Assembly: GCA_944323705.1 (NCBI GenBank)
Contig: CALUTM010000002.1
Coordinates: 542-64,541, forward strand
DNA length: 64,000 nt
DNA from: Candidatus Gastranaerophilales bacterium
Lineage (GTDB): Bacteria; Cyanobacteriota; Vampirovibrionia; Gastranaerophilales; Gastranaerophilaceae
Direction: 5' to 3'
Each line of letters opens with the position of its first letter. Positions within the stretch are counted from its first letter, which is position 1. A program made the translations under genes and the position numbers. Positions 42,446 through 45,708 of the stretch are shown in pieces. Under the pieces are notes generated by a model, which worked only from the letters and a program-made list of their open reading frames with translations, was not told the DNA's origin and did not search any database.

Positions 42446-42541
42446 GCAAGATTTATCGTCAAATGGGGTAAATAATCACCAAAGAGAGGAAGTTCTATAA
42501 TTGTAAATAATGTCTACAAGGCTGTACAAACCGAACTTTAT

Positions 42542-42706
42542 GTCATTGCGAGACGGATTAAGTCGAAGCAATCCAGCCTATTATAAACTTTAATTTTTGT
42601 GATTCGTTAGTAGTAGTTAAAAAAGTGACTAAGTGACTGGGTGAATAAGTGAGTAAGAAGTTAACATTTAAGAGATTCATCAGTCGCGTTGCTCCTTCTG
42701 AATGAC
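42542..42706 (+). repeat. Composite palindromic repeat, copy 2 (GTCATTGCGAG...GAATGAC)
   Basis: Outer GTCATT/AATGAC inverted ends; core 42627-42703 is 70/77 identical to 7531-7607. Confidence 0.85.
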
Positions 42707-42834: not shown

Positions 42835-45708
42835 TTACTGTTTGGTTAACTCCTGATACATTTTCATAAGTTCGGCGACGGTTTCGGATTCAGTGAACCA
42901 TCGGAGCTTACCGTTTTCATCCCGTTGTTTAAAACCGTAGGCTTCCATTACTGCCCTGTCGTTTTCCTGGTGTGCTTTTCTGAGTTCAACGGGCATTGTC
43001 AAATCGTCATACAAATCCGCAAGCGAACAATCGGGATACAATGCCCGTGCGTCTAAAATCCCCTGTGCAGTCTTTTCTATTTTTGCCTTCTGCTCATCTG
43101 TCGGACTGCACCACGGGAAGTTGTTGTAGACAATGTCTTTAGAATAACGATAATCACTTTTTAACCTTCCGCAAACAGCTCCTACCCAAGCCATGTGAAC
43201 ATTGGAAGTTAAAATACCCATTTCATATAATGTTGCATATTTTATAATGTGCACAGAATCACTACTTAAACTGTTATTAGCAAGAAAACCAATCGGAATA
43301 TATTTCCGTCTTTCCGAAGAAACTCTTGGTATTATTATATAGTCAGATTCAGGCATATTTTCCACATGGAATCTTGTAGGTTTATCCGCCAGTTTTCTCG
43401 TACCCTCGCTTTTGCTCAATAAACGCAGGTTTCTGACATTTTCAACTCTTTTTAAGCAATGCGGCATTTGTCTCAACTCCGCAGGAGAACAGTCTCCCAA
43501 CCATAGACAATAACGTGGTTTTTGATTAATAAATTCTTCAGCACCGTACCAAGGTTTAAAATATTGTTCGGATTTAGGTTCCCGTTTTATAAAATCAAGC
43601 ATTTCTTCACGGGTAAATAGGTAATTTCCGCCGTCAATTGGTTTATTGCCTATTCCTATTTCAGGTACATTACATAATGGCTTATTGCGGCTTTCTATAA
43701 ATACATCAGGTGCATCAATCAGGTAAGCGTTAATATTATCAACAATTTGCATACGCTCATTTGAGTACAGTTTTTTGTGTCCGTCATTTGCTACATAACT
43801 AAACCCGACAATTACACAGTGGACATGAGCTTTAGAATTTGATTCACTGTCCCATCTGAATGTTTTGTGTGCATAATTAATACTTATTCCCTGCTCAAAC
43901 AAAGGCTTCCATAATATTGGCACCTGCTCGCCTTGTGTTATCGAGTTTGTGGAAACAAGAGCGGTTTTTATGTCATGCTGAACTTGTTTCAGCATCTGTG
44001 GTTGGACAGACCCTGAAATAAATTCAGGGTGACATGATGCGTACATAAGTTGTGAAGCTTTAAAATACCAACAGGAGACATAATCAAGGTTCCCTGCATT
44101 TTTCCATTTGGTACCAAAAATATTAAACAAATCTTCTTTTTGAGCCGGAGACATCAGCCTTGCACCAACAAACGGCGGGTTGCCCATAATATAATTGCAT
44201 TTATCCCTCGGGATTACGTCCTCCCAATCAATCCGCAAGGCGTTAGCCTCTACTATATTTGCGTATGTTTTGAGCGGGAGAAAATCCAAATCCATGTGGA
44301 CAATATCTTCCGTCTTTTTCATCATTTGGGATTCGGCTATCCAGAGAGCGGTTTTTGCAACAGTTACCGCAAAATCATTGATTTCTATCCCGTAAAACTG
44401 TCCGATTGAAACTTTTATGGGGTTTGTGACCGCACCCATGGTAATCTGACCGCGGTAAAGCTCATATAAAATCTCGTTTTCAAGTTTTCTTAATGAAATA
44501 TACGTTTCCGTCAAAAAGTTTCCGCTTCCGCAGGCGGGGTCTAAAAAGTTCAGATTTGCAATTTTTGTTTGAAATTCAATCAACTTTTTATCATATTCTT
44601 TAAGAAGTTTTTTGCTTTGAATTACATTCTTAAACTCATTTTTTATCGCTTCAAATTCTTCATTAAGTTCGTCCATAAACAACGGGTCGATTACTTTATG
44701 GATATTCTCGATTGAAGTATAGTGCATACCGCCTTTTCTTCTGGTCTCGGGGTTAAGGGTGCTTTCAAATACCGCACCGAAAATTGTAGGGCTTATGTCC
44801 GACCAGTCAAAATCCGCACTTGCTTTATTAAGGAGCAAATCTCTGATTTCGTCGGTAAAATTAGGGATTTCAATATGTTCATTTGCAAACAGCCCGCCGT
44901 TTACGTAAGGAAATTCCGCAAGCTCGGGTTCCATATACGGGTCGCGGTCTTGGGGTTTGGTATTCAGGACTTCAAATAATTCAATCAATCCTTTTCGCAT
45001 TCTTCCCGTTTCAAAACGTGACAGGTAATCTAAAAACATATTATGTTTGGGGAAAATTCCCGCATCTTCAGCATAGAGACAGAAAACAAGTCTTACGCAG
45101 AGAATATTCAAACTTTTCAATGTTTCTTCGGAAGTTTTGTCTATATATCTGTCTAAAAATGCGTCATAAAGCAGCCCTACAATATCACCTGCCTTAACGG
45201 AAACTTCCATTTCTTTTTTGAGGTGTTCGCTTCCCTGATTAATCAAAAAATCAAGCCGGTAATATTCTTTTTCCAAATCTTTGAGAAGAATTTCCTGCGG
45301 TTCACCGTTCGGGCGTTCCATATCGTAAACACAAAACTTTTGAAAATTGCATGTTACAACCCACCTGGGGTGCTGTGATACGGGAAGCTCCGTTATGTAT
45401 CTTTTTGCCTGCTGAAACGGATTTAAATAACTTCCGTCCGATTGCTTGATAGCTTTATACAAATCCTTATCGGAACTTTTTTGTTCAATCAAAACTTTTG
45501 TTGAGGGAATATACGCGTCAATAAAACTCGTATGGTCAAGGTGAACTTTATCTTCAAAAGAAATAAACTGTTCCGCATGCTCAACACCCAAAACATCATG
45601 CAATAAGGAAATCCAGTACTTTTGGCTCTCACCTTTTTCGTAACCTTTGTCCTGCCAGTATTCAATAAAATCTTTTATTTCGCTTCTCTGTAATGTTTTC
45701 ATCATCAC
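42835..45708 (-). CDS. MmeI-family Type IIL restriction-modification enzyme (nuclease + N6-adenine MTase + TRD)
   Basis: FIDAYIP...LIEQKS PD-(D/E)XK, NGGLF, FLDPACGSGNF, MGNPPF, STNSITQGEQV, C-terminal LADLYD...LRKAH. Confidence 0.92.
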   Translation of the reverse strand: MMMKTLQRSEIKDFIEYWQDKGYEKGESQKYWISLLHDVLGVEHAEQFISFEDKVHLDHTSFIDAYIPSTKVLIEQKSSDKDLYKAIKQSDGSYLNPFQQAKRYITELPVSQHPRWVVTCNFQKFCVYDMERPNGEPQEILLKDLEKEYYRLDFLINQGSEHLKKEMEVSVKAGDIVGLLYDAFLDRYIDKTSEETLKSLNILCVRLVFCLYAEDAGIFPKHNMFLDYLSRFETGRMRKGLIELFEVLNTKPQDRDPYMEPELAEFPYVNGGLFANEHIEIPNFTDEIRDLLLNKASADFDWSDISPTIFGAVFESTLNPETRRKGGMHYTSIENIHKVIDPLFMDELNEEFEAIKNEFKNVIQSKKLLKEYDKKLIEFQTKIANLNFLDPACGSGNFLTETYISLRKLENEILYELYRGQITMGAVTNPIKVSIGQFYGIEINDFAVTVAKTALWIAESQMMKKTEDIVHMDLDFLPLKTYANIVEANALRIDWEDVIPRDKCNYIMGNPPFVGARLMSPAQKEDLFNIFGTKWKNAGNLDYVSCWYFKASQLMYASCHPEFISGSVQPQMLKQVQHDIKTALVSTNSITQGEQVPILWKPLFEQGISINYAHKTFRWDSESNSKAHVHCVIVGFSYVANDGHKKLYSNERMQIVDNINAYLIDAPDVFIESRNKPLCNVPEIGIGNKPIDGGNYLFTREEMLDFIKREPKSEQYFKPWYGAEEFINQKPRYCLWLGDCSPAELRQMPHCLKRVENVRNLRLLSKSEGTRKLADKPTRFHVENMPESDYIIIPRVSSERRKYIPIGFLANNSLSSDSVHIIKYATLYEMGILTSNVHMAWVGAVCGRLKSDYRYSKDIVYNNFPWCSPTDEQKAKIEKTAQGILDARALYPDCSLADLYDDLTMPVELRKAHQENDRAVMEAYGFKQRDENGKLRWFTESETVAELMKMYQELTKQ
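43970..44035. repeat. Double-hairpin palindromic element inserted in-frame in the RM gene
   Basis: ATGTCA-TGCTGAACTTGTTTCAGCA-TCT..AGA-CCCTGAAATAAATTCAGGG-TGACAT; encodes CHPEFISGSVQPQMLKQVQHD. Confidence 0.88.

Follow-up and report, generated by a model that had tools for sequence, protein, structure and literature searches.

We analysed a window of 64,000 nucleotides from a Candidatus Gastranaerophilales bacterium (assembly GCA_944323705.1, contig CALUTM010000002.1, positions 542 to 64,541 of the forward strand; coordinates given without a contig are those of the window). The source genome (G000) comprises 1.93 Mb in 87 contigs with 36.9% G+C. On the minus strand of the window, positions 42835..45708 encode an MmeI-family Type IIL restriction-modification (RM) enzyme of 957 aa with an intact frame, and its methyltransferase domain contains a 64-bp palindromic repeat (43971..44034) that is read in frame as the peptide CHPEFISGSVQPQMLKQVQHD. 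The open reading frame matches all five MmeI Pfam domains (PF20464, PF20465, PF20473, PF20466, and PF20467) and aligns over residues 11-936 with the solved MmeI chain 5HR4 (E = 4.5e-194). It has the single-polypeptide layout of MmeI: an N-terminal PD-ExK nuclease, a helical spacer, a gamma-class N6-adenine methyltransferase, a target recognition domain, and a C-terminal bundle. Motif I (DPACGSGNF), motif IV (NPPF, residues 510-513), the endonuclease residues D64/E75/K77, and the adenine-box residues H329/W619 are all present and do not vary among 44 aligned homologues; the MmeI structure paper (PMC4833311) counts motif I, NPPF, the His/Trp adenine box, and the PD-ExK site as essential. Judged by its sequence, the insert-bearing gene is intact, and a complete enzyme is predicted. 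Strong mosaicism marks the MmeI genes of this group (window 42835-45708 compared with loci L010, L077, L011, and L012). The window allele, hereafter the query, is identical to the syntenic MmeI gene of genome G034 over most of its length outside the target recognition domain; within that domain (gene positions ~2300-2600) the two differ by up to 39% per 100 nt, which suggests that they may have different recognition specificities.

The first-pass annotation of this DNA described a 66-bp palindrome at 43970-44035 with ATGTCA/TGACAT ends and two internal hairpins. That description is accurate: the plus strand there reads ATGTCATGCTGAACTTGTTTCAGCATCTGTGGTTGGACAGACCCTGAAATAAATTCAGGGTGACAT, and the conserved repeat core is the 64 bp from 43971 to 44034 (TGTCA...TGACA). 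The core is a compact inverted dimer of TGTC-tagged repetitive extragenic palindromic (REP) hairpins, with the tags pointing outward and the tails inward. Each unit consists of a TGTC tag, an 8-bp stem, a 5-nt loop, and a short tail, and a 10-nt spacer (GTGGTTGGAC, 43998..44007) that differs between copies separates the two. Read tag-first, unit A (43971..43997, plus strand) is TGTC / ATGCTGAA / CTTGT / TTCAGCAT / CT, and unit B (44008..44034, minus, that is, coding strand) is TGTC / ACCCTGAA / TTTAT / TTCAGGGT / CT. The whole core on the coding strand runs TGTC-ACCCTGAA-TTTAT-TTCAGGGT-CT / GTCCAACCAC / AG-ATGCTGAA-ACAAG-TTCAGCAT-GACA. Folded as RNA, the element has an energy of -31.8 kcal/mol, whereas shuffled versions average -14.2 (z = -5.9), and 0 of 200 shuffles were as stable. 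One of the six frames across it is open, namely the frame used by the host gene, which agrees with the earlier claim of an in-frame insertion. A transposon-derived MITE would have terminal inverted repeats and a target-site duplication. The ends of the insert are inverted (TGTCA/TGACA), and the junctions show no readable duplication; compared with insert-free alleles, the insert takes the place of one codon and the flanks are exchanged as well.

In the host protein, ...WYFKASQLMYAS precedes the peptide and IKTALVSTNS follows it. From CWY to LVSTNS there are 24 residues in 114 of the 120 nearest homologues and 25 in two, compared with 44 in the query and in homologue P0061 and 65 in homologue P0060. 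The addition had been put at about 21 aa; the peptide is indeed read in frame, and the net gain over the 114 homologues is 20 residues. The same counts bear out the earlier statement that this is a short loop in MmeI-family proteins: MmeI itself has a short loop, and the insert maps between its I525 and Q526, ~41 residues past NPPF and ~44 before W570. Alignment with MmeI homologues, one of the checks proposed at the outset, showed that the closest of them (90-97% identical) lack the insert, and the palindromic segment of the host gene is accordingly an insertion. An AlphaFold model places the site between a helix (residues 544-559) and a strand (residues 581-587). In class I methyltransferases, helix-to-strand loops lie across the sheet from the ligand cleft, and by this general topology the insert loop would face away from the S-adenosylmethionine (AdoMet) and DNA cleft. 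Homologue P0060 (L073:1501-4413) carries a 41-residue insert in the same loop, from an unrelated GC-rich repeat with CTCCCGCCCCTTGTGGGAGGGAG-type hairpins. Occupation of the P0060 loop by another repeat family points to loop tolerance rather than to a sequence target, and the MmeI-family loop, as read from these proteins, apparently tolerates inserts from two unrelated repeat families.

The 64-bp dimer occurs at the same codon in four other alleles (G032, from the same genus; P0061; L074; and L076). A first pattern scan of metagenomes returned none, and a second, looser scan returned one allele. Insert-bearing alleles share the flanks ...YFKAxxxMY-- / IK... (F-K-A-x-x-x-M/I-Y ... I-K), which insert-free alleles lack. 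In a tree built with the loop masked, the query groups with insert-free P0002 (support 100/99), and the four other insert-bearing alleles form a separate clade with insert-free G050 (100/100). An alignment of the query with P0002 over the gene plus syntenic flanks covers 5874 positions, of which 258 differ; 85 of these differences fall in the two 100-nt bins that contain the element, and none fall in the following 700 nt. Aligned by blastn to the syntenic G034 locus, the query shows a break precisely at the element, with both flanks syntenic. The minimal recombination patch spans 43963..44065 (minus strand) and consists, in gene sense, of the dimer with ~31 nt upstream and 6-8 nt downstream that differ from insert-free alleles near-identical elsewhere; a few extra single-nucleotide polymorphisms extend out to ~44150. 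These patch flanks resemble insert-bearing alleles, the 31 nt upstream of the element being identical to P0061 and G032 at 24 of 31 positions versus 16 of 31 to G034. No second copy of the insert flanks was found in the source genome. The query allele therefore differs from its nearest relatives by a sharp patch of ~100-200 bp around the element, in a clade that is otherwise insert-free. Since the nearest allele differs sharply only in this patch, recombination most likely delivered the dimer, and the exchange of such a patch is unsurprising because MmeI genes are mosaic throughout.

We conclude that the REP dimer probably landed once in the MmeI loop, reached the query allele on a recombination patch, and persists there as a neutral loop. 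An old, single dimer insertion would have taken place in the other MmeI clade, in the loop between the helix and the beta-strand IKTALVST, and would have survived because it landed in its sole open frame and on the face of the fold opposite the AdoMet and DNA cleft. A short tract (~100-200 bp) would then have carried the dimer and its near flanks into the query allele by homologous recombination or gene conversion; translated there, the dimer would form a flexible loop of 21 residues that would hardly affect the enzyme. In the source genome, the element most likely did not insert itself and came on a patch from an allele of the other clade. Several points weigh against this history. That the enzyme tolerates the insert is something we infer from sequence. 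The single origin rests on five alleles whose stems differ by whole family-typical variants, and independent insertions at a preferred site could also give five differing dimers. The direction of the patch, a gain in the query and not a loss in all close relatives, follows by parsimony only, and whole-gene trees are approximate because of the same pervasive mosaicism. The AlphaFold model is mediocre (mean predicted local distance difference test score, 68), and the low confidence of residues 561-578 carries little weight because the whole methyltransferase domain of the model scores low, too low to fix the loop's position in space.

The element belongs to a real dispersed repeat family that is almost always intergenic in Gastranaerophilales. 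We counted the family with the strict pattern GTCANNCYGAAYTYRKTTCRGNNKCT over 201 genomes of this order, using the reversed pattern as a control, and found 4187 units in 152 genomes, with up to 312 per genome, and zero matches to the control. The source genome has ~15 further units (8 units by the strict pattern), including inverted dimers with a ~25-nt spacer at C59:9745-9830, C63:7498-7585, and C10:43790-43887. No other copy in the source genome lies inside a long open reading frame; all are intergenic, which settles the count of coding and intergenic copies that had been proposed. In the relative G054, many intergenic compact 64-bp heterodimers have exactly the layout of the RM insert (eight such copies were cited as identical in architecture), and the 10-nt spacer varies among these copies too. 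CGTC-tag variants of the units are present in relatives, and intergenic copies usually carry a TCTTAC tail. A search of Rfam with the repeat loci returned nothing relevant, just tRNAs and sub-threshold noise. The first-pass annotation had tied its reading of a genuine dispersed repeat to two observations, homologues without the segment and further copies in the genome, and both were made.

Its broader picture of a habitually protein-invading repeat did not survive. A six-frame search of the 201 genomes with the 23-residue insert peptide gave well over a hundred matches, nearly all in frames shorter than 120 residues or with stops. Matches in long frames lie mostly before the true start of pilin-like and other genes (for example the pilin-like L063-L066 and L068, and also L061, L069, and L070), and copies in 5' leaders or ahead of the true start were left out of the coding-insertion count. 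A word-indexed protein search with residues 550-589 returned the query alone and was unable to reveal other carriers. One further clear internal coding case emerged, a Mu-like transposase of ~603 residues (PF09299 match, weak rve match) with the dimer in frame at residue 525. This transposase occurs as an open frame of ~603-625 residues in at least six genomes of several genera (loci L059, L060, and L062 at G134:C12, G083:C34, and G094:C8, with matching ~603-aa frames in G159, G127, and G169), and its three translated copies are near-identical, which looks like one insertion event spread by the mobile element. The family rarely enters proteins, and coding copies are exceptional. The G094 transposase also has a second in-frame insert near residue 385, from another GC-rich repeat (ALLVGGVKRARSGADSSPLPPIR).

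Some intergenic copies stand close to start codons. Family dimers lie directly upstream of likely type IV pilin-like start codons (L063-L066 and L068, in G177, G119, and G088), and the genes downstream have N-terminal ...FSLVELL... or ...FTLAEVL... motifs; the dimers ahead of these genes could be 5' leader structures. In the source genome, a single unit (C63:2785-2830) lies just upstream of a 116-residue open reading frame, and its 3' arm provides AGGAG ~12 nt before the ATG.

By its anatomy, the window element matches the CGTC-2 type of CGTC-tagged REPs. These repeats have the tag CGTC, often TGTC, stems of 8-9 bp starting with A/T pairs, loops of 4-5 nt, and a short tail; they occur mostly as inverted dimers, have no associated transposase, and occasionally form intragenic dimers coding 20-30 residues, and CGTC-2 is defined by 8-bp stems and 5-nt loops (Di Nocera, De Gregorio & Rocco 2013, BMC Genomics 14:522; PMC3733652). 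Both window units have TGTC, which like CCTC is an accepted variant of the tag, 8-bp stems (ATGCTGAA/TTCAGCAT and ACCCTGAA/TTCAGGGT), and 5-nt loops (CTTGT and TTTAT); both stems open with an A-T pair, followed by T-A in one unit and C-G in the other. The family is likewise multi-copy, mostly intergenic, and arranged in inverted dimers. The peptides are also alike, the Sulfurovum CGTC-2 intragenic insert encoding RHSELVSGS (supplement of PMC3733652), close to CHPELVSGS in the window insert. Differences lie in the tail, conserved as TCT (TCTTAC) in the window family versus CCA in the CGTC-2 consensus; in the intragenic host, an RM enzyme here and a repair gene in the published cases; and in distribution, the published phyla being Proteobacteria, Chlorobi, Bacteroidetes, Spirochaetes, and Thermotogae, with the Melainabacteria/Cyanobacteriota lineage unreported in PMC3733652, where recombination-patch delivery and covariation within coding DNA are also undescribed. 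In neither the window family nor CGTC-2 is a transposase gene flanked by the repeats. Involvement of a RAYT was rejected, as unrelated palindromes, GTTGGGCA... and GGTGGGCA..., surround both Y1_Tnp (PF01797) genes of the source genome (C36 and C41). One RAYT-like tyrosine transposase (L021, G000 C36:6655-7023) is flanked by GTCGGTTGGGCA...TGCCCAAC palindromes and holds a copy of its own palindrome in frame within its coding sequence (GTTGGGCAAGTATGCCCAACCGAC, read NVGQVCPTD).

Rickettsia palindromic elements (RPEs) are reportedly found in frame in unrelated genes and tolerated in loops, and they share with the window element a palindromic repeat and an in-frame insertion. REPINs, in which an inverted doublet of REP hairpins is said to act as the dispersed unit, resemble it in that doublet. 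RPE-1 differs in being longer (~100-150 bp) and in invading many genes of one genome, whereas the window family is rarely coding; Rickettsia is moreover obligately intracellular and the present bacterium is a free-living gut organism. The tag in the REPIN/RAYT system is GTAG (GTAG REPs, PMC3733652), in contrast to TGTC here. The Rickettsia analogy drawn in the first-pass annotation was apt, and it stays within the same CGTC-tagged superfamily because RPE-6 of R. conorii is CGTC-1 and RPE-4 is CGTC-4 (PMC3733652).

Covariation and identity were compared among the five insert-bearing alleles. With the element modelled as two local hairpins, 98.8% of cells pair, and three stem pairs are changed on both sides; the covariation score was reached in 0 of 500 shuffles. 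The unit A stem keeps its pairing in five of five alleles, with two positions changed on both sides. A model of a single long hairpin (cruciform) gave no excess covariation and is hence unsupported. Identity between alleles is 83-98% in the hairpin parts, 65-83% in flanking coding DNA, and 10-50% (1-5 of 10) in the spacer. The middle residues of the insert peptide vary freely, and L076 encodes IPKQVRND where the query has MLKQVQHD, with pairing kept. Compensatory substitutions maintain the stems even as the peptide diverges, and it is therefore the nucleic acid, not the protein, on which constraint or homogenisation acts. Candidate causes are a selected DNA or RNA hairpin role, copy-correction (gene conversion) from family copies, and hairpin-templated intrastrand repair.

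The first of these causes, selection for a nucleic-acid function that keeps the hairpins inside the gene, is compatible with the insertion history, and we regard it as possible though unlikely. The hairpins might be a target for an Ssn-type nuclease or a hairpin-binding protein, a recombination signal for RM segments, or an mRNA structure that affects expression. Stems that covary and exceed the surrounding coding DNA in conservation, around a peptide that is not conserved, are what such selection would leave; however, the comparison covers five alleles only, and concerted evolution or hairpin-templated repair yields the same pattern. A nuclease target has a precedent in Neisseria, where CGTC-tagged hairpins (NTS, reading CGTCATTCCCGCG...CGGGAATC) are cut in single-stranded DNA by SsnA, a 94-residue GIY-YIG protein whose gene is repeat-flanked; by cutting its own hairpin, SsnA reduces integration of transforming DNA (Nat Commun 2025;16:2388; PMC11893778). 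The window family resembles NTS in its oriented hairpin, with a conserved (C/T)GTCAT lead and ATC past the stem, and in reaching hundreds of copies in some genomes. In four relatives, moreover, a single-domain GIY-YIG gene of ~95 residues has inverted family units on either side (G090, locus L035; G192, L033; G101, L034; and, partly, G190, L036), with four units upstream of the G090 gene and five downstream in opposite orientation. Across the 201 genomes, unit number correlates with presence of a close GIY-YIG homologue (Spearman rho 0.49, p = 3e-13, kinship ignored), the median being 27 units with such a homologue and 4 without.

Other observations run against a nuclease target. Genomes G088, G089, and G147 have 71-102 units and no such GIY-YIG gene. 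The source genome has only a 57%-identical GIY-YIG subtype, flanked by a different hairpin (TGTCATTGCGAG...CGAAGCAATCC), and no GIY-YIG gene flanked by the window hairpin type was found in it. Unlike those of NTS, the window-family stems are AT-rich, and any cleavage in the window family is putative. The literal search string of the Ssn-related motif (SRM), HGTCWYN(0-2)YYVSBRHN(0-5)WNVSBRGN(0-2)RNCYNB, has no match in either unit or in the family consensus and a single match in the whole source genome; the units satisfy the HGTCWY lead and fail at the GC-rich stem positions. As for the source genome's own subtype, a single-domain GIY-YIG gene of ~98 residues occurs in three copies or more (C23:19409-19850, C24:25965-26395, and C82:3455-3716 with C1:1-245), each with inverted TGTCATTGCGAGGACGATTAGTCCGAAGCAATCC hairpins on both sides, the NTS-ssnA-NTS layout (PMC11893778). 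A lone TGTCATTGCGAGGACGATTAGTCCGAAGCAATCC hairpin lies in the window at 42541-42574, just downstream of the RM gene stop, and is followed by sequence that, by eye and unaligned, resembles the upstream leader of the GIY-YIG cassette.

A more specific proposal, that REP hairpins are DNA signals (Ssn nuclease targets or recombination points) governing the exchange of MmeI-family cassettes or modules between strains, strikes us as rather improbable; if it is true, a "selfish" repeat is now part of the machinery that shuffles defence-gene alleles. For the recombination signal named above, some divergence shifts do fall near the loop (the query/P0002 patch and G017/P0060), but breakpoints occur everywhere along the MmeI genes, and the G050/P0061 shift lies at the start of the target recognition domain. 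A role of the element as a marker of recombination breakpoints is at best possible, since MmeI genes are mosaic everywhere.

Also to be weighed is an origin in which the dimer inserted independently in each allele at a preferred target in the MmeI loop, so that the site and not ancestry explains the shared position; we consider this improbable. The alleles do carry different family-typical stems and loops (ACCCTGAA/TTTAT in the query, ATCCTGAA and ATTCCGAA in L076, and CTTGT loops in P0061), and presence of the insert departs from the backbone tree, G050 being sister to P0061 and lacking it. There is also a precedent in Xanthomonas recB genes, which carry different REPs at about the same site (Di Nocera et al., PMC3733652). 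Yet the shared flank residues arrive with the element in the query, as the upstream identities given above indicate, and the genome has no other copy of those flanks. The source genome offers few units and no cognate GIY-YIG gene, and the other repeat family in the P0060 loop argues for loop tolerance and not for a sequence target.

An adaptive role for the 21-residue loop, altering the activity, specificity, or regulation of the RM enzyme, is highly unlikely, and the earlier suggestion that the insert modulates a defence enzyme found no support. The loop is stop-free in five alleles that have diverged by ~25%, and it has moved onto a new backbone. Against this, the peptide is unconserved where DNA pairing is kept, as in the MLKQVQHD and IPKQVRND versions; the loop occupies a helix-to-strand position, with NPPF and the W619 adenine box each ~45 residues away; and most of the MmeI family functions without the insert. 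That the palindrome arose by chance or through misassembly, a concern raised by the 87-contig draft, has a negligible probability given the fold z-score, the same 64-bp architecture at the same codon in four independent assemblies, and thousands of family copies with no reversed-control match.

Tolerated intragenic dimers of CGTC-type REPs were already known, and the additions made here are modest: delivery of a dimer on a recombination patch, covariation of hairpins within coding DNA, and an MmeI-family loop that has taken up two unrelated repeats. For enzyme engineering, the I525/Q526 loop of MmeI accepts 20-41 extra residues from two unrelated repeats. The locus is also a natural test case for whether REP hairpins in coding DNA are preserved as nucleic-acid structures. 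More broadly, these results add gut Melainabacteria to the known range of CGTC/TGTC-tagged REPs and of their link to small GIY-YIG genes, and they indicate that an in-frame repeat insertion can move between diverged alleles of a defence gene on a recombination patch of ~100-200 bp.

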